A DNA stretch of 64,000 nt from an uncultured Candidatus Saccharibacteria bacterium (GTDB lineage Bacteria > Patescibacteriota > Doudnabacteria > UBA920), in assembly GCA_964474825.1 (NCBI GenBank), contig CAYYWQ010000001.1:65420-129419 (forward strand), given 5' to 3'. The first letter of the stretch is position 1. Every line of letters starts with the position of its first letter. Made by a program: the position numbers and the translations under genes. The notes under the pieces were generated by a model, which saw nothing but the letters and a program-made list of their open reading frames with translations, was not told where the DNA came from and ran no database searches. Shown in pieces: positions 1,396 through 61,830 of this stretch.

Positions 1396-1407
1396 GACCG
1401 TTTCTAT

Positions 1408-10930: not shown

Positions 10931-11059
10931 CATAAATAGAGTATATAACAAATTTAGAAAAAATAAAAAACTCCCAAAAAGAAAAAATGGGGAGGGTGTA
11001 ATACAATATCAGCCGGACCCGTTTTAATCTGCGTACCTTATTTTTTACCAAAAATGAGG

Positions 11060-11340
11060 AGCCCGGAGAAGAGCTCTTGTAACGGTTAGTTGCAAGGGCA
11101 TTGCCCTTCTCCGGGGGTTTAAAACGGGGGCAAACAAAATAGCAGTAAGTTCTTAGCAGTGAAAGCGCCGTCCCGTTACGGCGCTGCGGGGTCCTACAAC
11201 CTTCCGGTTTGCATTTTTAGATCATCCAGCGCGCAGTTGCAAACCGAAAGGCCTGGGTCATTGGCCTTCCTCCTTCTTTTGGATTGTTCGTGTTTCCTCC
11301 CTTTCGGAAGGCGAACGGTTGGCCTAACGTCAGCCATCTA
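11060..11340. other. Second GC-rich structured non-coding patch
   Basis: 10-bp inverted repeat CCCGGAGAAG…CTTCTCCGGG (11068-11122) with nested AAGGGC-ATT-GCCCTT hairpin; no supported ORF. Confidence 0.25.
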
Positions 11341-11469
11341 ACGATAGTATAAGTATTTTTAAAAAAGTGTCAATAAAAAATTTTACAAAAGAAAAACCGA
11401 ACAGTGGTTCTTTGTTGAACGGCGTCCTTGCGGATGCTGAAAAACAAAAAAGTTGTTCGGATTTTCTTC

Positions 11470-11512
11470 GGGAGGAAAATGTAAGAATTAGGAACCGGCC
11501 CGCGGGGGCCGG
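11470..11512 (-). terminator. Hairpin plus T-rich tail downstream of the 42-aa ORF
   Basis: 7-bp GC stem, 4-nt loop, then TTCCTAATTCTTACATTTTCC on minus strand. Confidence 0.4.
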
Positions 11513-11545
11513 GTGTTTCAGTGACTGCAACTGCGATCTGCGTTC

Positions 11546-11674
11546 CTAGCTGACGTCGCCGGTCGAATTGCTGGCTTCCACAGTGAAAACCGAGATGCTC
11601 GTGGCGCCGGCGGTGTCGGCCTTGTAGTTCCAGCGGTTGTGGCCCATGTTGTTGCGATTGTTGCGTTTCTTCAT
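11546..11674 (-). CDS. Candidate 42-aa small protein (MKKRNNRNNMGHNRWNYKADTAGATSISVFTVEASNSTGDVS) in GC-rich patch
   Basis: AGAGGAAA RBS 5 nt before ATG (11674); followed on its strand by GC hairpin CCGGCCC-GCGG-GGGCCGG (11495-11512) and T-rich tail; below the 60-aa ORF-track cutoff. Confidence 0.3.
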   Translation of the reverse strand: MKKRNNRNNMGHNRWNYKADTAGATSISVFTVEASNSTGDVS

Positions 11675-12018
11675 TTGGTTTCCTCTAATCGGACAAATTT
11701 CTCTCGAAGAACTAAATAGGTACTTGGGAGTACCAAAGTTTGCTCGGTGAAACCGAGCCTACTTTTTTTATTAGTCCTCCGATAGATGTTAGGATTGTAT
11801 AAGACCCTAATTTTTTTGTCAAATTTTTTCTCTAGAATATGGGGAGTTTTTATTTTTGCCTTAAATATGAGGGAATTTGTGTTTAATAAATTTTAGTAAA
11901 ATTTACATAACTAAAGTATTGCAAAATAATCCCCAAATTTGTCTTTAAAACTGGTCTGGGTCCCAGGTTAAGGCGTGTTATAATTATTGTGCTTATGTAA
12001 TCAAGCCGGAATAAATCT

Positions 12019-13134
12019 ATGCCACGACCTAAAATTTTTGAATCCTTTGACCTTTTAAACTCCGAAGAGGCCGGGCAAGAGGCGGAACAAAAGACTCCAC
12101 ATATAGAAAGAAACCCAAACGATTTAAGTTTAAGGAAATACATAGAGGCTTACGCTGTTTCTTTGCCGGCAATTGTCCGTAGTTTTCCCAGGGGTAATTT
12201 GGACATGCGCGCTTTGGAAGCCCACTATTGGGACAGGTTAAAAAAATACTATCCGTACGACGACTTTAAGGCGGTAAGAATTGAAAGCAAAGAAGAAATT
12301 GAGTTTATAAATACTGCTATTAAAATGATAGAGGGCTGGTTTTATAAAGGCCAATGGACTTCGTGTTTGGCACAGCCTAGTGAAGCAGAAATAAAAGAGG
12401 CTTTAGAAGGGCGGCAAAATAATTTTTTACAAAAAGTTAGGGCGAATAAGCAAATTCCAAATTTGGGAAGGGATCGCAAAGGAGTTAGGCTTCCTCCAAT
12501 GCCCGATATTTACGAAGATGCGCAATTCTCTAAGGATTTGCCGCAAGTTTACAGGGAACATGCTTTTAAATTTTTTCACAGTCCGGCCGCGGTAATGAAT
12601 ACTCTGACTAAAGTTGAAACAGTAAGGAAAGTTGAAGTTAATGACGCGGCTTTCTTAAATTTAATTACCTCTGCCCAAAACCACGCAGAGAGCAAGTTGG
12701 CCGAGTGGTCAAAGTCTCATAAGGGTAATGCTGTAACATCAAACGATGCTGAAATATTAAGGCAGTCCGGGAGAGTAATGAAGATGGAGCCGGGGTACAT
12801 TAGGCATAACCCTAGAAATAAATTTAAGCGCGAGTTGTTTTTTATGAAAACTTGTATGGCTGGCGCTGAACTTATGAGAAGGTCAAATACTGAAAATGGC
12901 GAATTAACATTGGATAATTTTGAAGGCATTATGGATTTGTTAAAGCAAGAAATGGCAAGAGCAAAAGAAGAAGGAAGGGATCCTAACTACCTTCCTATGG
13001 ATTTTGCCGGGGGAGATGGAAAAGAAAAACCTTATAGCCAATCAAGTTCATTGCATGTAAATACAAAAGAGCTACCAATTGCTTTAATGGCTGTAGACTA
13101 TTTACGGCAAAAAAATATGGCTGTCAAAAGATAA
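12019..13134 (+). CDS. Hypothetical soluble protein, no recognisable domain
   Basis: 371 aa ORF with AT-rich upstream region; charged/helical composition. Confidence 0.55.
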   Translation: MPRPKIFESFDLLNSEEAGQEAEQKTPHIERNPNDLSLRKYIEAYAVSLPAIVRSFPRGNLDMRALEAHYWDRLKKYYPYDDFKAVRIESKEEIEFINTAIKMIEGWFYKGQWTSCLAQPSEAEIKEALEGRQNNFLQKVRANKQIPNLGRDRKGVRLPPMPDIYEDAQFSKDLPQVYREHAFKFFHSPAAVMNTLTKVETVRKVEVNDAAFLNLITSAQNHAESKLAEWSKSHKGNAVTSNDAEILRQSGRVMKMEPGYIRHNPRNKFKRELFFMKTCMAGAELMRRSNTENGELTLDNFEGIMDLLKQEMARAKEEGRDPNYLPMDFAGGDGKEKPYSQSSSLHVNTKELPIALMAVDYLRQKNMAVKR

Positions 13135-13163
13135 TAAAAAAATCCCTAAAAAGGGATTATTCG
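13134..13163. terminator. Bidirectional terminator-like hairpin (ATCCCT-AAAA-AGGGAT) flanked by A7 / T-rich
   Basis: Immediately after 12019..13134 stop; the A7 run reads as T7 for the convergent minus-strand gene 13288..13674. Confidence 0.45.
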
Positions 13164-13287
13164 CCTTGGCTATGACTGAGACGGATTTTTTTATGAAATA
13201 AATAATAAAGGGAGTGGCGGCTCCCGGGGCGGGACAGTTGTCTTGCGACAAAAGTCCGCCGTTCGTTAGCCGCCACATATGCGGTCG

Positions 13288-13674
13288 TTAAATCCCGTCC
13301 CAAGACAGGGGTAACGACCGGAACGACTTTCCTCCGCAGAAGAGATCGCGGAGGAGGTCTTCCACTAGGAGTGGTGCCCGCCAGAAATCCTGGTCGGGAA
13401 ACCCAGGTGGATGTAGGTTCGGCCCCGCATCGTATGATGCAAGTATCACCCTAGTGTCGTGCCACGAGACGTGGTCGATGATCGGGGACAGCTCCTGCAT
13501 CGTCATCGCGCGAGGCGGGGTGAAGAATGCTGTTGTGGTTTGCCCGGGCGCAAGAGTCGGCCCGGACAGAGACATTTGTCCCGACAAGGGCGGGGCGATG
13601 TCATAGGTTGAAATGAATCCTACGGCTAGGCCGTAGAACATCATTCCGGCAATCAAAGTAACCACTCGGCCCAT
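13288..13674 (-). CDS. Hypothetical membrane-anchored protein in GC-rich island (start set to inner ATG with AAGGAG RBS)
   Basis: ~128 aa; AAGGAGAAGGAA upstream of ATG at 13674; one N-terminal TM helix; ~60% GC; 9-bp GC hairpin GTGGCGGCT…AGCCGCCAC plus T-rich tail downstream (13205-13270). Confidence 0.4.
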   Translation of the reverse strand: MGRVVTLIAGMMFYGLAVGFISTYDIAPPLSGQMSLSGPTLAPGQTTTAFFTPPRAMTMQELSPIIDHVSWHDTRVILASYDAGPNLHPPGFPDQDFWRAPLLVEDLLRDLFCGGKSFRSLPLSWDGI

Positions 13675-13825
13675 TTCCTTCTCCTTATGCAAAGCATCCG
13701 AACGATGCCTATAGTATCTGCCCCTCCTACGATTTGGGGGTCAAGATATTAAAAGTATAGAGGAAAAAGAAAAAAATATAAATATGTTGTAATTAAGGCA
13801 AATGATATTCAAAAGGCTTTGCAAA

Positions 13826-13853
13826 GGTTTGTTTTAAAATGCTACAATTGGGA
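13826..13853 (+). promoter_or_regulatory. Sigma70-like promoter TTGCAA-18 nt-TACAAT
   Basis: Good -35/-10 match with 18-nt spacer, ~20 nt upstream of ATG at 13874. Confidence 0.45.
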
Positions 13854-13873
13854 AAATTCACGAAGGTTTTCCA

Positions 13874-14053
13874 ATGAAAGTTCGTCTGAAAATCGGGCGG
13901 AAAAAGAAGCCGCTCAAGCCGTCCCCGCCTGAGCCACCAAAGCCCGAGCCCCATTGTCCTCCTGCGACGCAGGATTGGGCAAAGGCCAACGAAAGGGCAA
14001 GGCGAGGCAAGGAGCCCGATGTTTTTTCACTATTTACGAAACGGCTGAAATGA
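13874..14053 (+). CDS. Candidate 59-aa Lys/Pro-rich basic protein (MKVRLKIGRKKKPLKPSPPEPPKPEPHC…)
   Basis: Preceded by the TTGCAA/TACAAT promoter; GC-rich; overlaps antisense track ORFs 13858..14148 and 14030..14215, which I consider less likely. Confidence 0.3.
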   Translation: MKVRLKIGRKKKPLKPSPPEPPKPEPHCPPATQDWAKANERARRGKEPDVFSLFTKRLK

Positions 14054-14200
14054 GGTCCGTCCTCTATTTCTGTCCCGGCGGCCCATGATGGTCCGCCTTT
14101 TTCTTTTGTAATATTTTTTACTCTTGACCAAATATTTTTTTTGTTCAAAAATTAACCTACTGGCGCTACGGGCGCCAAATTCACTCCCAAGAGGAGGAGA

Positions 14201-14567
14201 CGTGAAGAAGTTCATTTTTCAAGTTTGGGAAAATTCCAAACTTCGCAATTGGGCGTACACCCTGGCATTTCTGCTAATCGTGCCAGTCGGTGGGCGATTC
14301 TCCTGGTTCGCGTGGCAGCACGGAAACGGGCTGGATCGCTTTCTGGTGATCGTCACCGGCCTGGTCATGGGCGCTCTGGCGTCGGTGACGCTTTATCGTT
14401 TCTGGCAGGTGTTGCCAGTTGCGACTTCGCCAGAAAAGCCGGTCGACTTCCCGCCGATGTCCGAGGAATTCGATGTGCTTTCGGACTTGGACAGGAGCAA
14501 CGTGCACAATCGTCTGATTGCACGTGATGCAGCCGCTCTGGGCTGGCCAGCACAACGGGTTCATTAG
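14201..14567 (+). CDS. Small two-TM membrane protein in GC-rich island (GTG start after GAGGAGGAG)
   Basis: RBS GAGGAGGAG 4 nt before GTG at 14201; two hydrophobic helices; ~60% GC. Confidence 0.4.
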
Positions 14568-14671
14568 TTGAACGCCGCCGGCGGGGGACACCAAACCTCG
14601 CCTTTTTCTTTTGGCTGTGAAAAGCTATAATGAAGTTAAGGGTTTACGGTATTAGTTAGCAAGGCGCATAT

Positions 14672-15379
14672 ATGAGGAATAAAATTAAATTAGCTATATT
14701 TGACATAGACGGCACAATATTCCGTTCGTCTTTGGTTATTGAGCTTAGTCATGCTTTAGTAGAGGCCGGGGTTTTTCCGGCATCGGCAAAAAAAGAAATT
14801 GCTAAGGAATATTTGGCATGGCTGGACAGGAAGGGGAGTTATGAGGCTTACATAAACAAAGTTGTAAAAATTTATGTTAAGCACATTGGCGGCCAGAATT
14901 TTACCCAGGTTAAAAAAATTGCCCAGGAAGTCATTCATTTTCAAAAAGACAGGGTTTATAGGTTTACGCGCGACTTAATAAAAAAATTAAAACATCAAAA
15001 TTATTTCTTAGTGGCTATTTCCGGCTCTCCTTCTTATATAGTAGGAAGCTATGCCAAAGCTATTGGCTTTAATTTATTTTTTGGCACAGAGTTGGAAGTC
15101 AAGAACGGGAAATTTACAGGCAAGGCCGTAAGTTTAGACAGCGCTTACAACAAGGCAAAAATAGTTAAGAGTTTGGTAAAAAAATATAACATTAGCTTAA
15201 AAGAATCCATTGCCGTGGGAGACACTGAGAGCGACGTTCCCATGCTAAAGTTAGTTGGCAAGCCTATGGCGTTTAACCCTAATTTGCAATTAGCAAAGGC
15301 AGCACAACGTAACAAATGGGCTATTGTTGTTGAACGAAAAGACGTGATGTATGAAGTTAAGAATTTTAAGCTACTTTAG
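14672..15379 (+). CDS. HAD-IB family hydrolase (phosphoserine-phosphatase-like)
   Basis: 235 aa; IFDIDGTIF motif I, AISGSP motif II, VAVGDTESDVPM motif IV. Confidence 0.7.
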   Translation: MRNKIKLAIFDIDGTIFRSSLVIELSHALVEAGVFPASAKKEIAKEYLAWLDRKGSYEAYINKVVKIYVKHIGGQNFTQVKKIAQEVIHFQKDRVYRFTRDLIKKLKHQNYFLVAISGSPSYIVGSYAKAIGFNLFFGTELEVKNGKFTGKAVSLDSAYNKAKIVKSLVKKYNISLKESIAVGDTESDVPMLKLVGKPMAFNPNLQLAKAAQRNKWAIVVERKDVMYEVKNFKLL

Positions 15380-15387
15380 ATTATCTT

Positions 15388-16125
15388 ATGACCATAACTT
15401 TAGCTATTCCTGCCTACAACGAAGAAAATTATATTGGTCCATGTCTGCAAAGCGTGCTTGCGGCCGCGCCGGACAATTTAATAGAGATTTTGGTTATTAA
15501 CAATGCCAGCACAGACAAAACTGCGGAAGTGGCAGCAAGCTTTGACCTCGTGCGGGTAATTAACGAACCGCTAAAAGGCTTGACCAGGGCCAGACAAAAG
15601 GCCCTTTTGGAAGCCAAAGGAGATTTGTTGGCTTTTGTGGACGCGGACAGTATAATGCCAAAAAAGTGGTTTGACGTTTTAAACCGAGAGTTCAAAAATA
15701 ATCCTGAGTTAATTTGTTTAAGCGGCCCTTATAGGTATTACGGCATAGAAAAAGTCAAAAATATTTTTGTGGCTTTTTGGTATAAAGTTTGGTTTATGAT
15801 CTGGTATGGTAGCGCGGATTTTTTTATTGCCTTCACCAGGGGTTATGTTGTTGTGGGCGGAAATTTTGTGGCCAAAAAGCAGGCATTGTGGGACATGGGA
15901 GGTTTTGACACAAAGATTGAATTTTACGGGGAAGATACAGACGTGGCCCGTCGGCTTAACAAGCTCGGGAAAATTAAATACGTTAAAGATTTTTGGATAA
16001 GAAGTTCCGCCAGGAGGTTTAACAATGAAGGCCTGGTCCTTACCGGTATTCGCTATTTGGCTAATTATATTTCCGTGATTTTTTTAAAAAAACCGGTGAC
16101 AAAAGGCTACAAGGACATTAGATAA
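15388..16125 (+). CDS. Family 2 glycosyltransferase
   Basis: 245 aa; LAIPAYNEENYI…ILVINNASTDKT…VDADS DXD-type GT2 signature. Confidence 0.75.
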   Translation: MTITLAIPAYNEENYIGPCLQSVLAAAPDNLIEILVINNASTDKTAEVAASFDLVRVINEPLKGLTRARQKALLEAKGDLLAFVDADSIMPKKWFDVLNREFKNNPELICLSGPYRYYGIEKVKNIFVAFWYKVWFMIWYGSADFFIAFTRGYVVVGGNFVAKKQALWDMGGFDTKIEFYGEDTDVARRLNKLGKIKYVKDFWIRSSARRFNNEGLVLTGIRYLANYISVIFLKKPVTKGYKDIR

Positions 16126-31552: not shown

Positions 31553-32023
31553 ATGAAACAAAAAGGATTTACTTTAATTGAACTGCTTGTAGTAATTTCC
31601 ATAATAGGGTTACTTTCTTCAGTTTTATTTGTTTCCTTGAATAATGCCAGAGTAAAGGCCAGGGATGCAAAAAGGAAGTCCGAAATCAAGCAGATTGTTA
31701 CCGGATTGGTAATGTATTACAATGCCCATAATTCCTACCCGGCTAATACCTATAATGGTGCCTGTGGTACGGCCTTAAACGGCACTGACCTTATTTCTCA
31801 GGGGTTAATTAATGACGGAATAATAAAAAAAATACCATTGCCGCCTTCCAATTCAGGTCAATGCGGGGATTATTATTATTCCGGCACTTGGAATAATGCC
31901 CAAAGTTTGGCCATTATGACTAAACTGGAAAATGCTGATGTCGGGTGCAAGCCTTTTACCGGAGACCCAGACTGGTATATTTCCGGCTCCTACTGTAATG
32001 GTATTTATATTGTCACACAATAA
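31553..32023 (+). CDS. Type IV major pilin (PilA-like)
   Basis: 156 aa; MKQKGFTLIELLVVISIIGLLSSV prepilin motif; C-terminal Cys pair. Confidence 0.8.
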   Translation: MKQKGFTLIELLVVISIIGLLSSVLFVSLNNARVKARDAKRKSEIKQIVTGLVMYYNAHNSYPANTYNGACGTALNGTDLISQGLINDGIIKKIPLPPSNSGQCGDYYYSGTWNNAQSLAIMTKLENADVGCKPFTGDPDWYISGSYCNGIYIVTQ

Positions 32024-37268: not shown

Positions 37269-37289
37269 ATCAGGTAAAATAAAAAATCA

Positions 37290-37334
37290 GGAAGGGGAAG
37301 CAGAGGTCTGCGTCCCCTTCCCGTGACTACGTCC
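37290..37334 (-). terminator. Hairpin GGAAGGGGA-14nt-TCCCCTTCC with T-rich tail on minus strand, plus conserved CGTGACTACGTCC box (shared 3' element, copy 1)
   Basis: 9-bp stem; on minus strand followed by CTGATTTTTTATTTT; box overlaps stop codon of GC-rich gene. Confidence 0.55.
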
Positions 37335-37665
37335 GTTCTAGGAGTTTGTCCACCTCCATTTCGAGAATGAGGAAGTCACCCTCAACCTCGCCGCTTGAGC
37401 CGACCCAGCTGTCGTCGTAGAAAACTACGTGGGTTCCGCGGCAGTGGGCTACGAGCGTATCCCACTCAAGGCCGAGCTTAGCCCCGAGGTGGATGGAGGC
37501 TCGAATCATTGAAGGTTCGTTAGGCAGGGTTTCTAGGCGCCCGTCCCATCGCACCTCCTCATGCTCGACCCCTCTGGCAGCCAGATACGCGACCAACTGC
37601 GGCGAGTGGTCAAGAGGTGAAATACAACTGTGCCGCTCCGGCGGTTCGTAAACAAATATCTTCAT
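37327..37665 (-). CDS. Hypothetical protein in GC-rich island (start re-set to ATG with AAGGGAGG RBS)
   Basis: 112 aa (MKIFVYEPPERH…); RBS AAGGGAGGAAAAAACG-ATG; ~60% GC. Confidence 0.4.
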   Translation of the reverse strand: MKIFVYEPPERHSCISPLDHSPQLVAYLAARGVEHEEVRWDGRLETLPNEPSMIRASIHLGAKLGLEWDTLVAHCRGTHVVFYDDSWVGSSGEVEGDFLILEMEVDKLLERT

Positions 37666-37757
37666 ATCGTTTTTTCCTCCCTTTGAAAAACATTTTAGTA
37701 TACAAGAAATAGTAAAAAAAATCAAGAGCGCAATTAAAAATTGCTTAATAAGTGTAA

Positions 37758-52401: not shown

Positions 52402-52914
52402 ATGGATAACAACATTCCAGTAACAAGCGCCCCAGTGCCGAGTGGAAATAAAAATTATATAATAGTAGGCATTGTTGTTTTGGTTTTGCTGGCAGCGGGC
52501 GTTGTGGTAGCTTTAAAGTTAAAAAATAAAAACAAGCCTGCTGAGCAGCAGACCCAAAACGAGCCTCAGGCAATCATAAATAGGCAAGAGGTTCCCAAAA
52601 CCGAGAGGCCGGCAAATGTACCCAAGGATATTCCGGTGGAAAAATCCGCGGAAATTACCGCCAACAACAACATTGAGTTTAACGGGATTAAGGAAGGTCA
52701 GACCCAGTACACCAGTAACAAAACTTTGGCGGAAAATTATAAAACCTATATGGATTATTTGGCCAAAAATAATTGGGAAATTGTTTCCAATATGGATACT
52801 GAAAATTTTAAGGCAATAACCGCCAGAAAAAATGGAGAAACTTTTAGCGGAATATTTGACTTAAATAGTACCACCGGAAAAGTAAACGTAAATATTATGG
52901 TAGAGAGTAAATAA
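52402..52914 (+). CDS. Hypothetical membrane-anchored secreted protein (paralog of 55941 gene)
   Basis: 170 aa; N-terminal TM; C-terminal ENYKTYMDYLAKNNWEI… region alignable with 55941 product. Confidence 0.45.
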   Translation: MDNNIPVTSAPVPSGNKNYIIVGIVVLVLLAAGVVVALKLKNKNKPAEQQTQNEPQAIINRQEVPKTERPANVPKDIPVEKSAEITANNNIEFNGIKEGQTQYTSNKTLAENYKTYMDYLAKNNWEIVSNMDTENFKAITARKNGETFSGIFDLNSTTGKVNVNIMVESK

Positions 52915-52925
52915 TTTTTTCCAAT

Positions 52926-52961
52926 AAAAAATCCCCTTCAAATTTTGAAGGGGATTTTTAT
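52926..52961. terminator. Bidirectional terminator ATCCCCTTCA-loop-TGAAGGGGAT flanked by A5/T5
   Basis: Perfect 10-bp stem directly after 52914 stop. Confidence 0.7.
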
Positions 52962-53008
52962 ATTTTAGGTTGTGGCATTTTGGTTGGTTAATTATTTAGA
53001 GAGAGGGT

Positions 53009-53063
53009 GGGGGAAGGTAGAGGCTAATACTCTAAACTCCTTCCCCCCGTGACAACTACGTCC
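53009..53063 (-). other. Shared 3' element copy 2: hairpin GGGGGAAGG-21nt-CCTTCCCCC followed by CGTGACAACTACGTCC
   Basis: Aligns with 37290-37334 (CCTTCCC-CGTGAC-ACTACGTCC, 21/24 with gaps, plus similar GGAAGG/CCTTCC stems); lies ~85 nt 3' of the 754-aa GC-rich gene. Confidence 0.45.
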
Positions 53064-53146
53064 AATCCCCGTACTTACGGGAAGCGGACGAAAAACATAC
53101 AAATGAGAAAGGTCGTGTGGGACGCTGTGGTCCCCAGTGGAAAAGG

Positions 53147-55411
53147 TCATGCTTGACCCTCCTCCACCGGTGGCGGATCGGCCGGCGGCGGTTCCGCGGG
53201 CGGATCGCTGGGTTGCGGTGTCGGTTCCGGTTCCGGGTTAGGCTCCGGTGTTGGAGCTGGTGACGGATTCGGATTTGGATCTGGTCCTGGTTGGGGTGGC
53301 TCTTGTCCTGCTGTATCACCCGGTGGCGGAGCCACCAAGGTCAGCTTAATCCATCCGCTGGACTTGCCGTCCGCACGAACCACACGCAGCCAGAGATCTC
53401 CTGGTGCCGGGTAATCCGCAGGGAGAGGTAAAAACATGGACTTGGTGTCGTTGAATGTTGCTGTCCACTTGGTGTGGTCCGCTAATTCAACAACGGCGCA
53501 TTCTGCCGAACAGCCAGGAGTTGTCAGGAAGTTTCCAAGGATCTGGAAAGTAACTCCGGGCCATAGCTCCGAGCGTTCGGGCTTTTCGGCATTTACCACC
53601 GATCCGATCTCGGGCGGAGGTTGGACAACCTCAACCTGAATCGGTCCTGCCGAGGCGGTGTTACCGCGAGCGGAAGCACGGACAGTGAAGCTGCCGTTTT
53701 CCATGGGCGTAAAACTAACACATTTGTCGCTGACGCTGTCAGCGGCACCGAAATCCCGGATGTCTCCGGAAATCCCGGCCCACGTAATGACCCACGTGGA
53801 GGGTTGTTCGCTGGTAGTGAAGCAAGCCGCAGTAGGCTTACCTAAGTCCAGCGAAGTCGGCGTCACCGTGAACTTGGTCACGGCAATAGGTCCTGGGGCA
53901 TTGGTCACGGTGATGTTGAGCGGCAGACTCCACGCAACACCTGTGTTGCGGTTGGTGGAATACGTCTGAAGCTCATAGTTACCAGCCTTGGGAACGTTGA
54001 CAACAGCGTCGTCGCTCCGAAGGATCTGGTTGGATTCGTACCCGGTTGCCTTAGTGTAGAGGACAGTGGTCCAGTCTACACCGAAACATCCGGCGCACCT
54101 TAGCGAGATAGGAGATCCCGCAAAGAAAGGTGCCTTCGTGGTCAGTTCAAGCAGGGGCTTGGGAAATACCAGCGGAACAGTCCCGCCGCCTTCCTTTGCT
54201 CCAGTTGCGTAAACCGTTCCGGCGTCGTCCATGTAAATGGAGCCGGCAACGATACCGTTGAGTTTGAACTTCGCCGTAACATCACCGGGTAAAACCAAAT
54301 TATACGTCTGGCCTCCGGTTTCCTTCAGGATCAGCTTGCCCGGTCCTGGAGGATCAAAGGATGTTGGGAACGTGAGGAAGGCGATTCCGGCGGCGCTAGT
54401 CGCTGCCGAAGATGCTTTGAGGTTTTGTGCTCCCGAGGTACCTCGAGCTACGAGGGTAAGCTTGAGGGTGACGGGATCCAGAACTGCGAGTGCGTTGGCA
54501 TCAAACCTTGAAGAGCTGATTGCTATAGCTCCGTTCGGTCCTGCTGACAAATAGCAGCACTCTACCGAGTCCTGGAACAGAAAGTCGGTCGCCGAGGTTA
54601 CAGCTAAGCGCGCACCGCCTGCGAGTCCGACAACGTAGACGTTGTCGTGATTCAGAGCAGCACTAGTTGTAACTGCAAAGTAGTCGCCGGTGGCAACTAC
54701 GTCTTTTATAACCAGACCTAGAGACCAAGGCGTTACATCAGCGATCTCACCACCTTCTGGGGGGATTTGAAAAATCCGCCAGTTGCCTTGGAGGTAACAG
54801 CTCGTATAGAGCTTGCCGTCCTTGGCAAGATTGACTGTGGTGAATTGCGCCGGGATGCCCAGGGTTTTAACTATGGTTTCTTCGCGCAGCTTGAAAGGAA
54901 AGAGCTGGCGATTGTTGAGGGGGGAAAACACCCTTAGATCAGCTGTAGACACTGTGAAGATCGTGTCATCAAGCCACCCGAATTGTGGAGATCCTGTGAC
55001 GTCGCTGATTGTGGAGACTGCCACATAGCGGTCGTCAACAGAGAGGTTGCCCATGAACGGATCGACATAACTTGCCGGCCCTACATGGTAAAACAACAGT
55101 TTGCCGCGCCGTTGACCTGGATTTGGTAGGCCAGCTTTTGCGGCCAACTCTTCCATGGTTCCGACATATTGCATCGAGGAATCAATCCCTTTGCGGAGCA
55201 CGTAGAGGGAGTGCTCTCCCGTAGCGGTACCCAGCACACAAGCCCTGGTAAGGCGTGTTGATGAGCTCCTGCATTGAAAGGCTGCAGGAAGGCCGTCTAA
55301 AGCAGTATCGACCGAGACGAATCGCCCCGGAACGATACCGACTTGTTGTGACCAAGCGTTACCACTAAAAAGCAGTAGTAACACTAAAAGAGATGCAAGT
55401 TTGAGCTGCAT
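53147..55411 (-). CDS. Large secreted protein encoded by GC-rich island, Pro-rich C-terminal tail
   Basis: 754 aa; signal peptide MQLKLASLLVLLLLFSGNAWS; ~58% GC; GGAGGTGA RBS 5 nt before ATG; C-terminal PEPNPEPEPTPQP tract; no recognised domain. Confidence 0.55.
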   Translation of the reverse strand: MQLKLASLLVLLLLFSGNAWSQQVGIVPGRFVSVDTALDGLPAAFQCRSSSTRLTRACVLGTATGEHSLYVLRKGIDSSMQYVGTMEELAAKAGLPNPGQRRGKLLFYHVGPASYVDPFMGNLSVDDRYVAVSTISDVTGSPQFGWLDDTIFTVSTADLRVFSPLNNRQLFPFKLREETIVKTLGIPAQFTTVNLAKDGKLYTSCYLQGNWRIFQIPPEGGEIADVTPWSLGLVIKDVVATGDYFAVTTSAALNHDNVYVVGLAGGARLAVTSATDFLFQDSVECCYLSAGPNGAIAISSSRFDANALAVLDPVTLKLTLVARGTSGAQNLKASSAATSAAGIAFLTFPTSFDPPGPGKLILKETGGQTYNLVLPGDVTAKFKLNGIVAGSIYMDDAGTVYATGAKEGGGTVPLVFPKPLLELTTKAPFFAGSPISLRCAGCFGVDWTTVLYTKATGYESNQILRSDDAVVNVPKAGNYELQTYSTNRNTGVAWSLPLNITVTNAPGPIAVTKFTVTPTSLDLGKPTAACFTTSEQPSTWVITWAGISGDIRDFGAADSVSDKCVSFTPMENGSFTVRASARGNTASAGPIQVEVVQPPPEIGSVVNAEKPERSELWPGVTFQILGNFLTTPGCSAECAVVELADHTKWTATFNDTKSMFLPLPADYPAPGDLWLRVVRADGKSSGWIKLTLVAPPPGDTAGQEPPQPGPDPNPNPSPAPTPEPNPEPEPTPQPSDPPAEPPPADPPPVEEGQA

Positions 55412-55413
55412 CT

Positions 55414-55466
55414 TTCACCTCCGGGGAAGAGGGATCAAGGTTGATCCAACCTTTCCCGGAGGTGAA
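55414..55466. repeat. 12-bp perfect inverted repeat TTCACCTCCGGG…CCCGGAGGTGAA around the start of the 754-aa gene (carries RBS in both orientations)
   Basis: Read directly; inner GGATCAA-GG-TTGATCC palindrome. Confidence 0.75.
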
Positions 55467-55565
55467 ATGAAAACACTAAAACACATTACTAAACACGACA
55501 AAAATCGAGATTTGTTATCTCGTTTCTCATTTGTATTTCCTCCATTATTCTCACAAGGTTTTCAT

Positions 55566-55599
55566 TTCTCGAGCCTTTCCGGCCGGAAAGGCTCGAGAA
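55566..55599. repeat. Perfect 34-bp palindrome TTCTCGAGCCTTTCCGG|CCGGAAAGGCTCGAGAA
   Basis: Read directly; followed by hairpin AAATCAGC-CCCC-GCTGATTT (55611-55630). Confidence 0.85.
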
Positions 55600-55940
55600 T
55601 ACACACGCTAAAATCAGCCCCCGCTGATTTGTATTCACGTGATTGTATACAAACCAGCCATTGGGACTAAAGTACTATAAAATAGTAGCGAGGCAGGTCA
55701 AGAAAACCTATGCGATATTTTAACGTGCTGAAAATACTATAAAGTATTTCTTAATTTTTGTCAAGTTTTAGATTGTGGATAACTTTACCATTTTTGGAAC
55801 GAATAAAAACGGTTTTTATAGTTGTCTTTATAATTTTTGTGGTATAATAAAATCACTACAGAACTACGAATTTATTGCGCTACCGATGCCTACAGAAAAA
55901 TGCACTTAATTTGTAATTGTCTAAAATTTAGAAACAAAAA

Positions 55941-56489
55941 ATGGATAATCAAATAAGAATAAATACACCAATGTCTCCGGCACCTTTACCGCCAAAGTCC
56001 CACAAAGGCAATGCCATTGCAGCAGTTGTTTTAGCTATGGTTGTTATTGCCGGTGGCTTAGTGTGGTGGAATAACAAAAAACCCAATACTACTAATAATC
56101 CTCCTGTGGGTTCCCAGCCAACCCCTACTCCCACTCCTTCAACAGACCCTGTGCATTTAAACGCGGCAAATCCCGCTCCTGCTCTGTTTCCTTTAAAAGT
56201 TCCTTTGGAAGCGGAAGGAAAAGTTATAAATACCATAGACGAGCCTACCAAGGCCCAACGTTCTTTTATTAGCAGTAAAACTGTAGAAGAGAACTATAAT
56301 CTTTATAAAGATTATTTTGAAAAAAACGGTTGGACAATTACGGATCGCCCTGAACCTACCGGCGTCACCGGTCAGGCTTTTGACGCTACTAAAAATAATT
56401 TAAAAGCTTCCTTTGAAACTAAAGCTAATAAGAGCGGCGTGGTTACCGTAAACATATATTTTACAGTAGTACCTCCCAAAAATAACTAA
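55941..56489 (+). CDS. Hypothetical membrane-anchored secreted protein (paralog of 52402 gene)
   Basis: 182 aa; N-terminal TM, Pro/Thr-rich linker, conserved C-terminal domain. Confidence 0.45.
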   Translation: MDNQIRINTPMSPAPLPPKSHKGNAIAAVVLAMVVIAGGLVWWNNKKPNTTNNPPVGSQPTPTPTPSTDPVHLNAANPAPALFPLKVPLEAEGKVINTIDEPTKAQRSFISSKTVEENYNLYKDYFEKNGWTITDRPEPTGVTGQAFDATKNNLKASFETKANKSGVVTVNIYFTVVPPKNN

Positions 56490-56497
56490 AAAGCACA

Positions 56498-59400
56498 ATG
56501 TCAATAAGTAAGACCAAGCTTGTCACTACAATAATTTTTACTTTTTTTGCGTTAGGCGTTGTTTTTGCAACGGGTTATTATAACAACAGTGGATTTAAAG
56601 CTACCTCCTTTAGTTCAAAAATTTTATCAACTGCCTACGCCCAAAATTGTGACGGCTTTTGTGATTACAGGTGTGGTACTCCATGTGAGAGCAGTCCAAA
56701 CTTATGTGGGCGGACGAATACCGGGACTTACGATTGTTCCGGGTACTGCCCGGGCGTGTATCAGCCAAATGATCCTGAGACGGGTTACGGAGATACGTGT
56801 ACTTCAGCTTCAGCGAATAATTGCGGCACTTATGGTATAGGCTATATGACCTGTAGCGGCGGCAGCGACAATTTGTATTGTAATGCCGTAAAACCTGCGG
56901 ACGGCACCATTGCTTGTACTTCGGACTCCAATTGCAGCGACCCCGATGCCTGTACAACAGACAGGTGTAATAATGCAGGTTCATGTTCTTCTTATTGCAG
57001 TAATATAAGTAATCCTATTAATGGCGACTGGTCAGGATGGGGAACCTGTAGTAATACTTGCGGCAGCGGCACCCAAACTCGTTCTTGTAATAACCCTTCC
57101 CAGGCTTGCGGGGGTAGTAATTGTGTGGGGTCGAATACCCAGTCATGCGAAGATTACAGTACCTGTTCATATAATTGGCAAACAACCGCTTTTGACAGTT
57201 GTTCAGTGTCTTGCGGCCCGGGAACGCAAAACCGAAGTGTGGCCTGTGTGCGCAGCGACGGCACTCAGGTTGACGACAGTTTTTGTCCGGGCGCGAAACC
57301 TGCTATTTCACAACCTTGCAACAACGGAGCGTGCGCGTCGTGTACACCGGACGGGAGCTGTAGCGCTGCAGCACCCTCATGTGAACAAACAACCTATGGT
57401 TTAGACAACTGCGACAATCAATGTCAAAAAGTGGGAAGCTCTTGTTCCACATGTGTTTCCGATGCTAATAGTTGTGATGCTGCTACGCCACCTTGCGGCC
57501 AAACTACAACTGGGCTTGATAACTGCAATAGGTCTTGTCAAAAAACAGGCCCTTCTTGTAGTGTTACAGTAACCCCCTCCAATGGAGTCACTCCAACTCC
57601 TGATTACTCTCAAGGGTCAACGTCGGTTTCTTGTACTAGCGATGACCAATGCGCGTTTTTAAACGCTACGGCTTGTAATAAAAATGCCAGATGCAACGCA
57701 GGGTTTTGTCAGGCTGAGCCAAGCTGTTTTGCTTGTAGGTATGACTCAAGCAAACAATTAAGCGAAAGATATTCTTGTTCCGATACTTTAACATTCTGGG
57801 GAGCTACTACATTAGATACATGCTGGAGTTCTTGTAATCCTAACCATCTTTCTCCACCATCTTCTTGTGATACAGCCTGTTATCCTCAAGGGCCCGCGGC
57901 GTATGGCTCCGGTGTGCAGGATGGGTGTGGCTTTTTGGCCACTGACGGAGGGACAAGTTGTGTGGAAGTTGACGGCGGTACTTGGCACTATACCTTAACC
58001 ACTTGGACAAAATTAACCTGCAACGGTCAACAGCATACCCTAAACAATGGGGTTTGTAGTAATAATACATCAAGCTGCACTTTTACTATGAATCAACCAG
58101 GTTCTTCCTCCACTGGAGGAGCAGATGGTCCTTGTCCCGGAGGAGCCGGTCCCTCTAGCGGGGCTGTTTGCGGAAACCACAATGTAGAAAGTCCTGAAAC
58201 TTGTGACGACGGAAACCTGGTAAACGGTGATGGTTGCGACAAAGATTGCAAATTAGAAAAAGTAATTACCGTAAGCGCCCAGCCTACGTTTTTGTCTATT
58301 AATCCGGGTAACAGCGCGTTGTATGTTTTAACTTCGTCTTCTTTGGGCGCGCCTATTGCCAATGCAAAATTTACTTTTACAGGCGGTTGCCCTTCCGGCG
58401 CCACCTGCAGTTTTAATGCCAGCGGCAATTCTACGGACACCAAAGCTTTTAGCAGCAACTCGGCATCTACAAATTTAACTATTACTAATACGACAACTGT
58501 TGTGGCTCCCCAAACTAGGAGCTTAACATTTAAAGTGGAAGATTCTTCGTGCTCCGGCCAAGTTGGGTGTCCGACGGCGACTGGGATTGTAACTTTAGAC
58601 ATTGCTTCTAGTGCTTCCCGAACAATTAAGGGTAGTAAAGTTATAATGCCCGGAAACCAAGCTATTGCCCCGGCCGCGGCACAGGCAGTGAGTTTAGACG
58701 GCGGCTCCCCAACTACGGCTAATCCTTACATTTTTTCAAATGTTTCTTCGGGTAATCACACGGTTTCTGTTCCCAACATAAGCGGTTACAATACGGGTTA
58801 CACTTTGTGTTACAACGGCACTACCTGCCATAGCACTACAACCCCAACTGCGGGCAATAGTGTTGTGGTAAGTGTCCCGGCGGGAGGGTATGCGGATTTA
58901 TGGTGGCACTATACCCCGAGCGGCGGCGTTACTGCGGACTTAAAAGGCACTGTTTGGACAAATAGCACCCGTAATACGGCTTGGGGCGGATACAGTAATA
59001 TAGATGGGCCGGTTATTGTTTACGAAACCGCACCTTATGGTTTAACTTGGACAAGCAATGCGACAACATGTCTTTTGGATGGAGTTTCTGTAACTCCAAA
59101 TAGCAGTAACAATACTTACACCGCAGGCACAAATACCTGGACCCGTGTGCATACCTTGGCTTGCACCAGTGCTGCCGGCTCTGCAAGCGACACCTTTACT
59201 ATTTCCATACCACCGCCTCCAACCAACCCGGGCGGAAGTTGCGGGGGAGCGGGTACTTCGCTTTCGCTTTCTTGGTCTGCCCCGGCCGGGTACAATAGTT
59301 TTTATGTCCGTGTTGTGGATTTAGCCAACAACTCCGTGTTCTTTTATACAAACGACAACTATTCCGGTACAACCATAACCGTGCCGAATACAATAAGCGG

Positions 59401-61135
59401 ACATACTTATTCCTGGTGGGTTCATACCAGGAACGCGGTGCAGGGCGCTTACAGTACTGCCGTAGGTACAAATGTTGTTTGCGGAACAATTGTCGCGCCT
59501 CACATTTCCTTGGCTGGCGGTCCATTTAACTTTAGCGGCTACTCCGGCGGGCCAACCCCGGCCTCGCAGAATTCCTTAACCTTAACAAACACTGTTAGCG
59601 GAACCACTTTAAAATGGAAAGCATCAACCGACCAGTCCTGGTGCCACGTTAGTCCGACCACAGGTACACTTTCGAACACTTCGCCGGTTAATTTAACCTT
59701 AAGCGTAGACGCGCCTTCAAGGGTTACCACTGCCCAGTGTAACGTAAAAGTTGAGGACAATAGTTCTTCCCCGGCGGCAGACAACAGCCCTCAGACCGTG
59801 GCGGTTACTTACACTGTTGCCAGCTGCGCGGATTATTTGGTCCCTGCGTCTAATAACAGTACCGCAACTTTTACCAACATTACTTCAAACGGTTATACAA
59901 TTAACTGGAACCCCAACAGCGGTCCTGTGGACAATTGGTATGGTTATAAAGCGCGCTTACGCTTTGCGGCAAGCTCGGCCGATGCTATTAGCTGTAACCC
60001 GGGAGTTAATAGTTGCATAGTAAAATTTGATACTAACTCAGCCATTTCCAGCTATACAGTTACCGGCGCCTCTCCAAACACAACCTATTACAACCGCATT
60101 CCTGCTGTATGCTGGGACTTTAACGACCTCTATAATCCTGCCGGTAATCCGGCCGCCGCGGAAAACCAAAATAACGGTTATAACCAGCTGAGGTTTAAGG
60201 ATAATACGCCGTATCCGACAGTTACAACTTTGGCTTCAACCCCTGTTAACCCTATAAATCCGGGAAGCTGTAATTCCCAAACTAGCTGCGCCAGCGGTGG
60301 CGGTACCCCAGCTTGTGCCAACGTCCGTTTCCAGTTCACCGACAATTCCACAAACGAAGACGGCTTTAAAATCTACAAAAATTCCGTTAATTCTACTTCC
60401 AGCGCGGCGTTAATAAAGACTATTACCAGCACCACAGTGGCCTCCACCGGACAGAAATATACATACGATTATGATTTGGCCGGCGATACAGCAGTTTATT
60501 ATTACTGGGTAACTGCCTTCAGTTCTACCTTGGGGCAGTCCGCGTACTCGTCCATGAATTCCATTGCCGCTTTTATTTGCGGGCCGACTATTATCAATTC
60601 AGACAAGGAAATAGTAAAAATCAACGGAGCTACTATTAATCCCGCGCCCACTGCCTGCAACCAGGACAGTACCCCGCTGCCGTCTTATATTGTTCCAAAA
60701 CTCGACGACGTCCTAACCTTTTCCGTTAATATTTGCAATACTAACGGTTCAACTGTCCTTACCGGAATTACAGTCAGCGACACGCTAGTTAATTTGATTA
60801 TGCCTACCAGCGGTTGGAATATGTGTTTTACCAGGACTTATGGAGATTGCTCCGTGGGTACTCCAATTACTACTGTAGGCAGCGGCAGCGGCAAGTATAC
60901 AGTGAGCGGTAATACCTTAAATATTAATTTAACCGGCAGCTCCTTCAATATTCCGGCCGGACAGTCCGCCTATATAATGCTGGACGCGCAATTGCCTAAT
61001 AATACCAGTAGTCGTTTGTTCCAAAACACAGCCAGTATTAATTACACCGGGTCAGCCGGAGCCTTAGACGTGTTTACACCCTTCCAGCAGTTCCTAAACG
61101 GCGCCAACGCCCCAATTATTAGGGAAAGACCATAG
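56498..61135 (+). CDS. Giant Cys-rich extracellular protein with thrombospondin type-1-like repeats, Myxococcus-type Cys-rich repeat and DUF11-like C-terminal repeats
   Basis: 1545 aa; signal/TM N-terminus; WSGWGTCSNTCGSGTQTRSC (TSP1 consensus WSxWxxCSxTCGxGxxxRxC) at aa 178-197 and second TSP1-like WQTTAFDSCSVSCGPGTQNRSVAC; CGNHNVESPETCDDGNLVNGDGCDKDC; C-terminal TVLTGITVSDTL DUF11-like. Confidence 0.7.
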   Translation: MSISKTKLVTTIIFTFFALGVVFATGYYNNSGFKATSFSSKILSTAYAQNCDGFCDYRCGTPCESSPNLCGRTNTGTYDCSGYCPGVYQPNDPETGYGDTCTSASANNCGTYGIGYMTCSGGSDNLYCNAVKPADGTIACTSDSNCSDPDACTTDRCNNAGSCSSYCSNISNPINGDWSGWGTCSNTCGSGTQTRSCNNPSQACGGSNCVGSNTQSCEDYSTCSYNWQTTAFDSCSVSCGPGTQNRSVACVRSDGTQVDDSFCPGAKPAISQPCNNGACASCTPDGSCSAAAPSCEQTTYGLDNCDNQCQKVGSSCSTCVSDANSCDAATPPCGQTTTGLDNCNRSCQKTGPSCSVTVTPSNGVTPTPDYSQGSTSVSCTSDDQCAFLNATACNKNARCNAGFCQAEPSCFACRYDSSKQLSERYSCSDTLTFWGATTLDTCWSSCNPNHLSPPSSCDTACYPQGPAAYGSGVQDGCGFLATDGGTSCVEVDGGTWHYTLTTWTKLTCNGQQHTLNNGVCSNNTSSCTFTMNQPGSSSTGGADGPCPGGAGPSSGAVCGNHNVESPETCDDGNLVNGDGCDKDCKLEKVITVSAQPTFLSINPGNSALYVLTSSSLGAPIANAKFTFTGGCPSGATCSFNASGNSTDTKAFSSNSASTNLTITNTTTVVAPQTRSLTFKVEDSSCSGQVGCPTATGIVTLDIASSASRTIKGSKVIMPGNQAIAPAAAQAVSLDGGSPTTANPYIFSNVSSGNHTVSVPNISGYNTGYTLCYNGTTCHSTTTPTAGNSVVVSVPAGGYADLWWHYTPSGGVTADLKGTVWTNSTRNTAWGGYSNIDGPVIVYETAPYGLTWTSNATTCLLDGVSVTPNSSNNTYTAGTNTWTRVHTLACTSAAGSASDTFTISIPPPPTNPGGSCGGAGTSLSLSWSAPAGYNSFYVRVVDLANNSVFFYTNDNYSGTTITVPNTISGHTYSWWVHTRNAVQGAYSTAVGTNVVCGTIVAPHISLAGGPFNFSGYSGGPTPASQNSLTLTNTVSGTTLKWKASTDQSWCHVSPTTGTLSNTSPVNLTLSVDAPSRVTTAQCNVKVEDNSSSPAADNSPQTVAVTYTVASCADYLVPASNNSTATFTNITSNGYTINWNPNSGPVDNWYGYKARLRFAASSADAISCNPGVNSCIVKFDTNSAISSYTVTGASPNTTYYNRIPAVCWDFNDLYNPAGNPAAAENQNNGYNQLRFKDNTPYPTVTTLASTPVNPINPGSCNSQTSCASGGGTPACANVRFQFTDNSTNEDGFKIYKNSVNSTSSAALIKTITSTTVASTGQKYTYDYDLAGDTAVYYYWVTAFSSTLGQSAYSSMNSIAAFICGPTIINSDKEIVKINGATINPAPTACNQDSTPLPSYIVPKLDDVLTFSVNICNTNGSTVLTGITVSDTLVNLIMPTSGWNMCFTRTYGDCSVGTPITTVGSGSGKYTVSGNTLNINLTGSSFNIPAGQSAYIMLDAQLPNNTSSRLFQNTASINYTGSAGALDVFTPFQQFLNGANAPIIRERP

Positions 61136-61287: not shown

Positions 61288-61830
61288 ATGAAAAATAAAA
61301 AAACCACGGGATTTACATTGCTTGAGGTCCTTATAGTTTTGGCAATTATAGGGGTTTTAGCGTCTGTGGTTATGCTTGCGTTAAAAAGGAGCCGGCTTAA
61401 AGCTGCTAATGCTAAAATTCAAACCACAGTGCACCAGTTTCAAATAGCTTCGGAGTTGTATTTGGCCGACCATGGTGGTCAATATGTAAGAGTGTCTTCT
61501 TCTAATATTCTTCCAGGATGGGATATGAGTTCCCAGGGAAATTTTTTGCCAGAACTTAAGCCTTATATGGCCCAGGAGATTGAGCATCCAAACAACATAG
61601 ACAGTTATTTATATATTAATTTTCAAGACGTAGACGCTAATCCTTACAACGCCATTTCGGAAGCCTTTAGAAATGGGTGTTCATCAAAAGTGAAAGCAGT
61701 GCTCGTTTATGATTTTATTGGGGATGATCCCAATAACCCACAAACTACAGTAATAGATAGCTCCTGGCCGGTGTGTCATTCCTCTTACGGTGGGTCACCC
61801 TTAGATTTTAATTGCCTATGCCTTAATTAG
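61288..61830 (+). CDS. Type IV pilin
   Basis: 180 aa; MKNKKTTGFTLLEVLIVLAIIGVLASVV prepilin motif; C-terminal Cys pairs. Confidence 0.75.
   Translation: MKNKKTTGFTLLEVLIVLAIIGVLASVVMLALKRSRLKAANAKIQTTVHQFQIASELYLADHGGQYVRVSSSNILPGWDMSSQGNFLPELKPYMAQEIEHPNNIDSYLYINFQDVDANPYNAISEAFRNGCSSKVKAVLVYDFIGDDPNNPQTTVIDSSWPVCHSSYGGSPLDFNCLCLN

Follow-up and report, generated by a model that had tools for sequence, protein, structure and literature searches.

We analysed a 64,000-nt stretch of contig CAYYWQ010000001.1, referred to below as the window, and within it a GC-rich segment at 52990-55667, the main island, whose sole long open reading frame (ORF; 53147-55411, minus strand) encodes a secreted protein of 754 amino acids (aa). 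We found that the coding sequence (CDS) of this gene is predicted to be base-paired far beyond what its protein and codon usage account for, and that two diverged orthologues show the same excess, the same GC contrast with their surroundings and the same convergent partner gene. The best explanation of the main island is a single transcription unit, conserved and monocistronic, in a Parcubacteria-like bacterium of the Candidate Phyla Radiation (CPR). We see about an even chance that it represents an old, conserved surface-protein gene under long-term selection for a heavily base-paired, stable mRNA. Its high GC content would then probably be a by-product of selection for pairing and not a mark of foreign origin: GC would be enriched, synonymous sites included, because an AT-rich genome reaches such pairing only via more G and C. 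Composition, synteny, the pairing excess at synonymous sites, the architecture of the untranslated regions (UTRs) and the uneven use of Shine-Dalgarno (SD) sequences were computed, whereas message stability, expression level, translational control and surface location are inferred.

Excess base pairing along the coding sequence

For each amino acid, synonymous codons were permuted among its positions, so that protein and codon usage stayed the same, and mean folding energy was taken over 150-nt windows. The native gene had a mean of -49.0 kcal/mol, against -41.9 ± 0.75 kcal/mol for its permutations (z -9.35). Orthologues on two other contigs, L005 and L006, deviated likewise (native -51.5 and -62.2 kcal/mol, permuted -42.0 and -50.5 kcal/mol, z -11.2 and -12.6). 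Two AT-rich homologues, on L007 and L008, stayed close to their permutations (native -32.3 and -24.1 kcal/mol, permuted -31.9 and -23.7 kcal/mol, z -0.5 for both), and under the same test the 44 other genes of the window gave a mean z of -0.91 (standard deviation 1.4, minimum -4.9). Across the GC-rich coding regions the extra folding energy over permutations amounted to 17-23%. When permutation was confined to blocks of 50 codons, z was -4.9 for the window gene, -10.8 for L005 and -12.9 for L006 (controls +0.5 and -1.8). Dinucleotide shuffles gave a mean z of -2.2 over the 29 folding windows that span the CDS (Mann-Whitney p = 1e-10 versus the rest of the window).

The excess was made up of many short helices and not of long palindromes. 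In a structure map of the whole window, the most structured segments were the GC-rich islands that an initial annotation of this DNA had picked out by composition. No consensus RNA structure was detected across the orthologous CDSs (alifold z -0.6, with only four usable windows). Since the helices are not positionally conserved, it would be general foldedness that is maintained and not one specific structure. To our knowledge, the folding effects described earlier in bacterial genes are far weaker. If our interpretation is true, this is unusually strong natural selection at synonymous sites for pairing of a whole message, with z of about -10 in separate lineages.

Composition and conservation of the gene pair

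The main island has 53.9% GC between flanks of 35.6% and 36.6%; within it the CDS has 55.3%, the leader 43.4% and the 3'UTR 50.3%. The figure of about 58% given for it initially fits a local peak (58.8% at 53001-53500) but not the whole, and the window, put at about 40%, has 44.1%. By codon position the GC of the 754-aa gene is 0.59, 0.51 and 0.56, compared with about 0.47, 0.37 and 0.42 in typical genes of the window. With its own amino acids and host codon preferences, a GC content of 50.2% and a third-position GC (GC3) of 0.446 would be expected; 55.3% and 0.558 were observed, a GC3 excess of +0.11. Roughly half of the GC excess is thus due to the amino acids and the other half to the choice among synonymous codons. 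The gene does deviate from the host in codon usage; the initial annotation had named codon usage like that of the flanking genes as a refuting outcome.

A full HMMER scan of 1.84 billion (1.84e9) representative proteins returned six matches besides the query itself. The alignment covers most of P0002 and P0006 (27% and 24% identity); P0003, P0004 and P0007 (a 72-aa fragment) resemble the query mainly in the C-terminal domains. The sixth, P0005, looks spurious, a match to a repetitive protein, and was set aside. Word-index homologue searches, trimmed alignments included, recovered the query only, and a first metagenome scan with the alignment of the 754-aa family found nothing.

The convergent arrangement was kept in three of these cases: P0002 (on L005), P0006 (on L006) and P0003 (on L007) each lie opposite a homologue of the partner gene (52402-52914, plus strand). 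These partner homologues have 26-34% identity and are homologous to both genes that flank the main island. The L005 orthologue is itself a GC island, with 54.3% GC and GC3 of 0.59 against 40%, as is that of L006, with 59.6% GC and GC3 of 0.65 against 34-36%; their partner genes have only 36-40% GC. The distant homologues on L007 and L008 have the same composition as their hosts. Among the three GC-rich orthologues third-codon-position identity is 0.29-0.35, which amounts to saturation, and each lineage must therefore have kept up GC content and structure on its own. A gene imported recently would lack this synteny, and an ancient import would be expected to have ameliorated, suggesting that something keeps these genes GC-rich lineage by lineage.

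A second metagenome scan, with the partner alignment, yielded contigs L014 and L015. L014 ends 94 nt past the partner, and a GC peak on it proved to be just a Gly-rich low-complexity region. On L015 the partner homologue adjoins a GC island (1333-2400) with a 277-aa ORFan gene that encodes a signal peptide and is unrelated to the 754-aa family. This gene has 57% GC in flanks of 30-38%, a folding z of -9.1, the SD AAGGAGGTGA, a promoter TTGACA-17-TATAGT and, at its 3' end, a hairpin followed by a CU-rich tract. Because an unrelated gene carries the same package, the phenomenon appears to mark a gene class and not one protein family. The 230-nt 3'UTR of the L015 gene also holds repeated CCCCGGUUAAAU/AUUUAACGGGG inverted repeats.

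The initial annotation took the islands for cargo from a higher-GC donor or for deliveries of one mobile element family. In its fullest form, foreign origin would mean a higher-GC, SD-using donor pool, such as an unsampled CPR virus or plasmid or the symbiont's host, whose genes kept inserting close to partner-family genes and have yet to ameliorate. Atypical GC and GC3, strong SDs in an SD-poor genome and the ORFan status of every island ORF would fit this, and the unrelated GC-rich gene beside the L015 partner homologue could mean a preferred landing site. The protein searches proposed at the outset did return ORFans throughout, with no Pfam, NCBIfam or PHROG match for any island protein. 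Phage and viral searches gave no match, and no homologue from a GC-rich genome was found among the 1.84e9 representatives. No integrase, transposase or relaxase was present in or adjoining the main island (ORF and domain scan), where the 754-aa gene is the one supported ORF of at least 100 aa; no tRNA lies anywhere in the 64,000 nt, and the borders of the main island show no direct repeats or target duplications. The islands have no common ends, and a self-BLAST of the window found no similarity between them, which speaks against a single element family. A 14-nt inverted repeat does bracket the ORF, but it lies inside conserved UTRs and not at the island ends. Moreover, the pair is syntenic on three other contigs, and orthologues keep partner, promoter type, SD hairpin and 3'UTR architecture despite saturated synonymous sites. 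A folding z of about -10 is not expected of ordinary high-GC genes, so a donor would need the same oddity, and an unsampled donor pool with the same odd properties has no positive support in this analysis. We therefore regard foreign cargo as unlikely. Other mobile categories were rejected: a diversity-generating retroelement target lacks a template repeat (window self-BLAST), and an integron cassette, an IS200/605-type element or a type I toxin lacks supporting genes, the products being too long.

An assembly chimera, with reads of a higher-GC organism joined into the contig, was one outcome that the initial annotation named as fatal to its own proposal. The sharp GC steps at both borders could suggest one, as could two Logan contigs (L009 and L010) that begin at 55570, near the right border. 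A perfect palindrome occupies 55566-55599, however, and a start at 55570 is therefore an expected artefact of k-mer assembly; such an assembler break could pass for an island boundary. Logan assemblies of two SRA runs (SRR14271365 and SRR14271372) contain the organism of the window. Contigs L009 and L010 are 100% identical to the window over 55570-57973, across the right border, and L011 is so over 7019-15873, across two of the smaller islands (2 and 3). Two more contigs, L012 and L013, again from both runs, carry a gene for a DUF2298 protein identical to that of the window; beside it lie a 144-aa gene of the AF_1845 family and another large ORF (of 460 aa in L012), a layout that matches the left border of the island when compared by gene content. 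The junction of GC-rich gene and AT-rich partner also recurs on independent JGI contigs. A chimera is thus largely refuted, and we give it next to no weight.

Predicted anatomy of the transcript

The promoters, transcript ends and RNA structures described here are consensus matches and thermodynamic predictions; all lie on the minus strand unless stated otherwise. Two promoter-like sequences were found in AT-rich DNA: P1 (TTGACA-17-TATAGT, 11/12, 55736-55764), just outside the island, and P2 (TTGACC-16-TATAGT, 10/12, 55674-55701). The start inferred from P2, near 55667, is the point where both GC and structure rise. Upstream of the L005 orthologue we found TTGACA-17-CATAGT, similar to P1.

A start from P2 would give a strongly structured leader of about 256 nt (55412-55667). 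A 301-nt fold of this region had a minimum free energy (MFE) of -123 kcal/mol (z -9.4), and the minus-strand structure map gave z -11.6 at 55351-55500 and -13.7 at 55501-55650. The palindrome at 55566-55599, recovered in a repeat search, is 34 nt long and perfect, with a 17-bp stem and no loop. Between the window and L005, 5'UTR homology is weak beyond a short AAAACCUU...GAGAAACG(A/G)GAUAA stretch.

The gene has a strong SD, GGAGGTGA (55415-55422), whose GGAGG core ends 6 nt before the ATG. It is predicted to be sequestered in a hairpin at 55413-55467 (-35.9 kcal/mol, z -6.05), in which an anti-SD mimic, UUUCACCUCCGGG, pairs with CCCGGAGGUGAAA; the SD itself (GGAGGUGA) is paired there to the upstream UUUCACCUCCGGG. 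The counterpart in L005 covers both SD and AUG (-48.5 kcal/mol, z -8.4).

The two ends of the transcript are predicted to pair. A leader segment (55523-55543) is complementary to a 3'UTR segment (53090-53110) and holds a 14-nt perfect complement, AUACAAAUGAGAAA (55523-55536 with 53097-53110), a length reached in 1 of 500 shuffles (p ~0.002). Full-length MFE folding placed 43 bp between leader and 3'UTR in the window transcript and 15 in L005, where complementarity alone is weak (p = 0.06). A GAGAAA/UUUCUC core is common to both; its extension differs in L005, where GGAGG is also paired to the CU-rich tail. The leader contains an upstream ORF (uORF) of 13 codons (MRNEITNLDFCRV, 55487-55530) preceded by a separate GGAGG SD; this SD and the AUG of the uORF fall within the predicted 5'-3' helix. 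Since L005 has ACG at the equivalent position, the uORF peptide is probably not conserved.

At the 3' end, twin hairpins (53009-53090), the second with a GGAAGGAG 5' arm and a CU-rich 3' arm, are followed by a C/U-rich tail, ACCCUCUCUCUAAAUAAUU (52990-53008), which ends the GC-rich segment. This order, in which a first hairpin is followed by a second with one purine-rich and one CU-rich arm and then by a C/U-rich tail, is common to the window, L005 and L006, although stem sequences differ, and a similar tail is found in L015. A bidirectional intrinsic terminator (52927-52959, both strands), common to the convergent partner gene, lies beyond it. The inferred transcript edges thus coincide with the island edges. 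Rfam 15 gave no match at the gathering threshold in the whole window, and a permissive search of 52900-55950 and 10300-14700 gave chance-level matches only (E >= 0.14).

Weighing the causes of the folding excess

Several observations weigh against a selected, highly stable message. The pairing excess is nearly equal for sense and antisense strands (z about -8 for both) and G-U pairs are not enriched, so some probability has to be left to a mutational or DNA-level cause. High expression that is simply constitutive is hard to reconcile with an SD covered by a hairpin of -36 to -48 kcal/mol. The RNA structures are all thermodynamic predictions, and the promoters were identified only by their likeness to the consensus. 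The anti-SD motif is absent from the 16S rRNA of about half of Parcubacteria (PMC9297842). Only three orthologues and one analogue were found, and they may be from related organisms. Two of the smaller islands (1 and 4, see below) have no significant synonymous-site signal (z -0.8 and -1.2), being too short to tell, and the small island ORFs have no homologues, which leaves their coding status putative. A surface or S-layer role for the 754-aa protein, finally, draws on a signal peptide, a weak IPT/TIG likeness (E = 0.07) and generic multi-Ig folds.

A neutral origin could take several routes. GC and inverted repeats would be raised, without selection on RNA, by local gene conversion biased towards GC at a recombination hot spot or by quasi-palindrome mutation templated on hairpins, and paired bases might be shielded from deamination in heavily transcribed DNA. 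The similar excess on both strands, in Watson-Crick and not in G-U pairs, agrees with such processes, as does the lack of positionally conserved structure among orthologues. Stability selection also prefers G-C over G-U, however, and so predicts strand symmetry too. Biased gene conversion lifts GC but creates no complementarity, the boundaries of GC and structure follow the transcript and not a recombination tract, and 5'-3' UTR pairing and SD-sequestering hairpins are alike in design between orthologues. We consider a mutational origin quite unlikely. Alternatively, the hairpin-rich DNA itself might matter, for example as single-stranded DNA in uptake, transfer or replication. Strand symmetry would suit this as well, and so would the perfect 34-nt palindrome in the leader and the 14-nt inverted repeat around the ORF. 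The 14-nt repeats, however, sit inside conserved, hairpin-bearing UTR sequence and not at the ends of the GC segment, the main island has no transposase, relaxase or target duplication, and anti-SD:SD pairing and terminator-like ends make sense in RNA only. A DNA-level function is accordingly very improbable in our view.

Selection for a stable, paired message, the reading that we favour, could work as follows. Two strong promoters would fire into the long folded leader, dense local helices would form along the entire coding region, pairing of leader and 3'UTR would close the mRNA and the twin hairpins would cap its 3' end. Together these features may shield the message from 5'-end-dependent, endonucleolytic and 3'-exonucleolytic decay and make it long-lived; structure in a CDS has been found to lengthen functional mRNA half-life (PMC6883848). 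With the start site held in a -36 kcal/mol anti-SD:SD hairpin, translation would need the strong SD and probably an opening event. A strong SD may be required because SD-independent initiation needs an unstructured start region. Given how stable the SD hairpin is, a message that is regulated, or stored and then used on demand, seems more likely than one that is simply expressed constitutively.

Smaller islands and the split in SD use

The initial annotation counted five discrete GC-rich islands. All are GC-elevated relative to their flanks (55.6% at 1104-1457, 51.8% at 13160-14610, 55.2% at 37280-37690 and only 48.0% at 10400-11700, besides the main island), but the count is somewhat generous, as several parts of large surface-protein genes also reach 50-53%. 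Its description of the islands as functional units and not drift is supported: they look self-contained, with a promoter, strong SD, ORF and hairpin terminator. The SDs on island ORFs were GGAGGTGA, AAGGAGGT, AAGGAG, AGGAGG and GGAGG, and hairpin terminators are present 3' of the ORFs. Genes outside the islands mostly lack an SD, as had been claimed. In the 25 nt upstream of the 44 non-island ORFs, a match of at least 5 nt to the anti-SD complement occurred in 2, and 36 had at most 3 nt. Start regions of non-island ORFs are A-rich, with strong SDs confined to the GC-rich units, and the same split is present in L005, L014 and L015.

Island 1 (1104-1457, plus strand) lies between purM and purE, both of which are encoded on the other strand. 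It comprises TTGAAT-17-TATTAT, the SD GGAAGGAGGT, a 91-codon ORFan ORF (1120-1395) and, as terminator, a GGGAGGCU/AGCCUCCC hairpin (about 1412-1441) that stops just short of the purE stop codon (1445-1447); the U/C-rich tail of the hairpin overlaps this codon. Island 2 (10400-11822, minus strand) has two promoter-like sites with 11/12 consensus matches (11822-11794 and 11373-11346), and each precedes a putative short, structured transcript that ends in a hairpin. Over 1.6 kb here, in a genome that is otherwise compact, no ORF exceeds 93 aa; one of the putative transcripts holds a 42-codon ORF (11546-11674). Island 2 had no Rfam match, and its minus-strand units are candidate small RNAs or small proteins. 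Island 3 consists of two units. The first, 3a (13160-13692, minus strand), has the SD AAGGAG and a 128-aa ORFan (13288-13674) with an N-terminal hydrophobic segment, followed by a long hairpin and then UCCCUUUAUUAUUU; its synonymous z is -4.67, 24.7% more stable than permutations. The second, 3b (14124-14610, plus strand), has TTGACC-17-AAAAAT, the SD GAGGAGGAG, a 121-aa ORFan (14202-14567) with a membrane-like product, a GC hairpin and a U-rich tail (synonymous z -2.8). Island 4 (37280-37690, minus strand) has TTGATT-17-TATACT, the SD GGGAGG, a 112-aa ORFan (37327-37665) and a GGGAAGGGGA/UCCCCUUCC terminator. The smaller islands look like further SD-led, GC-rich, structured ORFan transcripts, and the products of two of them have predicted membrane-spanning segments. 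A 371-aa ORFan (12019-13134, plus strand) of host-like 40% GC, located between islands 2 and 3, had no family match; an identical protein is present in a Logan assembly from the same environment.

It is possible, though doubtful, that some SD-poor Parcubacteria keep a whole gene class with natural 'superfolder' mRNAs and mostly lineage-specific, secreted or membrane-like products. Such genes would be GC-enriched, paired along the whole CDS by synonymous selection, closed by 5'-3' UTR pairing and dependent on a strong, sometimes masked SD. They would then form a second, separately controlled regime of translation and stability inside one small genome, and compositional scans would show them as false horizontal-transfer islands. 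We would give hardly any credence to the further idea that these are nuclease-resistant, SD-bearing messages made to work outside the producer's normal cytoplasm, for example in a host cell.

The 754-aa protein and its neighbours

The 754-aa protein has a signal-peptide-like N-terminus, MQLKLASLLVLLLLFSGNAWSQQ, and a Pro-rich C-terminal tail. The genes that flank it, at 52402-52914 and 55941-56489, are paralogous to each other (29% identity, E = 2e-9), bearing out the initial picture of a signal-peptide protein with a Pro-rich tail bracketed by paralogous genes. The protein had no match in Pfam, NCBIfam or PHROG. Single-sequence AlphaFold2 was uninformative (predicted local distance difference test score, pLDDT, 38), but a five-sequence alignment modelled the last ~190 residues as two beta-sandwich domains (pLDDT 75-90), with the N-terminal 470 residues at low confidence. 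Foldseek matched the model to generic multi-Ig arrays, the Sap S-layer protein of B. anthracis among them. A profile search of PDB sequences gave a weak hit to an IPT/TIG protein (E = 0.07); a TIG domain is recorded for homologue P0004 and is faint in P0003. The product is best described as a putative secreted, beta-rich surface protein with two Ig-like or IPT/TIG-like C-terminal domains and a predicted beta-rich N-terminal part.

The partner gene (38.8% GC, no SD) encodes a small N-terminally anchored protein of the Pfam family AF_1845, an assignment made through the PF27226 match of the 144-aa partner-family gene on the Logan contigs. This AT-rich gene has a synonymous-permutation z of -4.94 (41% more stable), mostly from 52426-52575 (z -4.3); its homologues in L005, L006, L007 and L015 are without this folding excess. 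Its paralogue (55941-56489, plus strand) lies upstream of a gene for a 1545-aa Cys/Ser/Thr-rich protein with thrombospondin type 1 (TSP1), BACON and fn3 domains (56498-61135, plus strand). A homologue of the C-terminal part of the latter (L005 3876-4748, minus strand) adjoins the L005 partner gene; genes of the partner family thus seem, as a rule, to occur alongside large surface proteins.

Envelope-type genes in the surroundings encode, besides the 1545-aa protein, a 1891-aa LysM protein, a DsbA-like protein and type IV pilins. The pilin genes (N_methyl motif) are at 31553-32023 and 61288-61830, both on the plus strand; the former has a z of -3.5, 17% more stable than permutations, though its GC is only 39%. 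In a scan of genome collections the neighbouring DUF2298 protein had 43-48% identity to proteins from Sungiibacteriota, Giovannonibacteria and Paceibacterota metagenome-assembled genomes (MAGs), without synteny. Because of the lineages of these relatives, we assign the window to a Parcubacteria-like CPR bacterium.

Implications and comparison with known systems

If this account is true, GC islands in small AT-rich genomes should not automatically be taken for horizontal transfer, since RNA folding can create them and keep them over long divergence. This matters both for detecting such transfer and for curating MAGs, where segments of this kind are often suspected chimeras. The findings would also bear on mRNA design and on the debate over CDS structure and mRNA lifetime or output. 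Confinement of strong SDs to these genes, in a clade with many 16S rRNAs that lack an anti-SD, would point to a split in translation initiation within CPR bacteria. The analysis also flags candidate major surface proteins for an uncultured symbiotic lineage.

No description of a GC island combined with a structured message and an SD dichotomy was found in the literature searched. Horizontal-transfer islands likewise have a sharp shift in GC and GC3, ORFan content and a translation signal that differs from that of their neighbours. Unlike them, the main island has no mobility genes, tRNA or border repeats, is syntenic in diverged relatives with the same contrast, and has an anomaly that coincides with transcript and base pairing.

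Messages of hok/mok-type type I toxins are stable and compact, and 5'-3' pairing together with an upstream anti-SD blocks their translation until processing. The predicted 5'-3' helix of the 754-aa transcript similarly covers the SD and AUG of the uORF. The product here is a 754-aa secreted protein and not a small toxic peptide, however, no antisense RNA is evident, and the uORF is not conserved in L005. RNA viruses with genome-scale ordered RNA structure show a generic folding excess over their whole coding region. The 17-23% extra folding found here, not positionally conserved and with end-to-end pairing predicted, resembles both these and engineered 'superfolder' mRNAs, although this is a chromosomal bacterial gene with a predicted sigma-70-type promoter and no replicase or reverse transcriptase.

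In the hbs mRNA of B. subtilis, the SD is strong, the 5'UTR is structured and the two UTRs interact, which couples stability to translation (PMC5737220). The 754-aa transcript likewise has a strong SD and is predicted to have a highly structured 5'UTR and 5'-3' UTR pairing. It differs from hbs, a short mRNA of normal composition that encodes a small DNA-binding protein and for which neither a GC island nor excess folding of the whole CDS is described. In Gram-positive bacteria, S-layer mRNAs have two promoters, long stabilising 5'UTRs and biased codons, and they are exceptionally long-lived, with half-lives of 14-15 min (PMC3666127). Unlike S-layer genes, the 754-aa gene is without sequence homology to any S-layer family, its structure spans the whole 2.3-kb CDS, its GC is ~18 points over that of the flanks and its SD lies in a -36 kcal/mol hairpin. 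It nevertheless resembles them, Lactobacillus slpA for example, in its signal peptide, tandem promoters, long structured 5'UTR, codon bias and strong terminator, all seen in silico.

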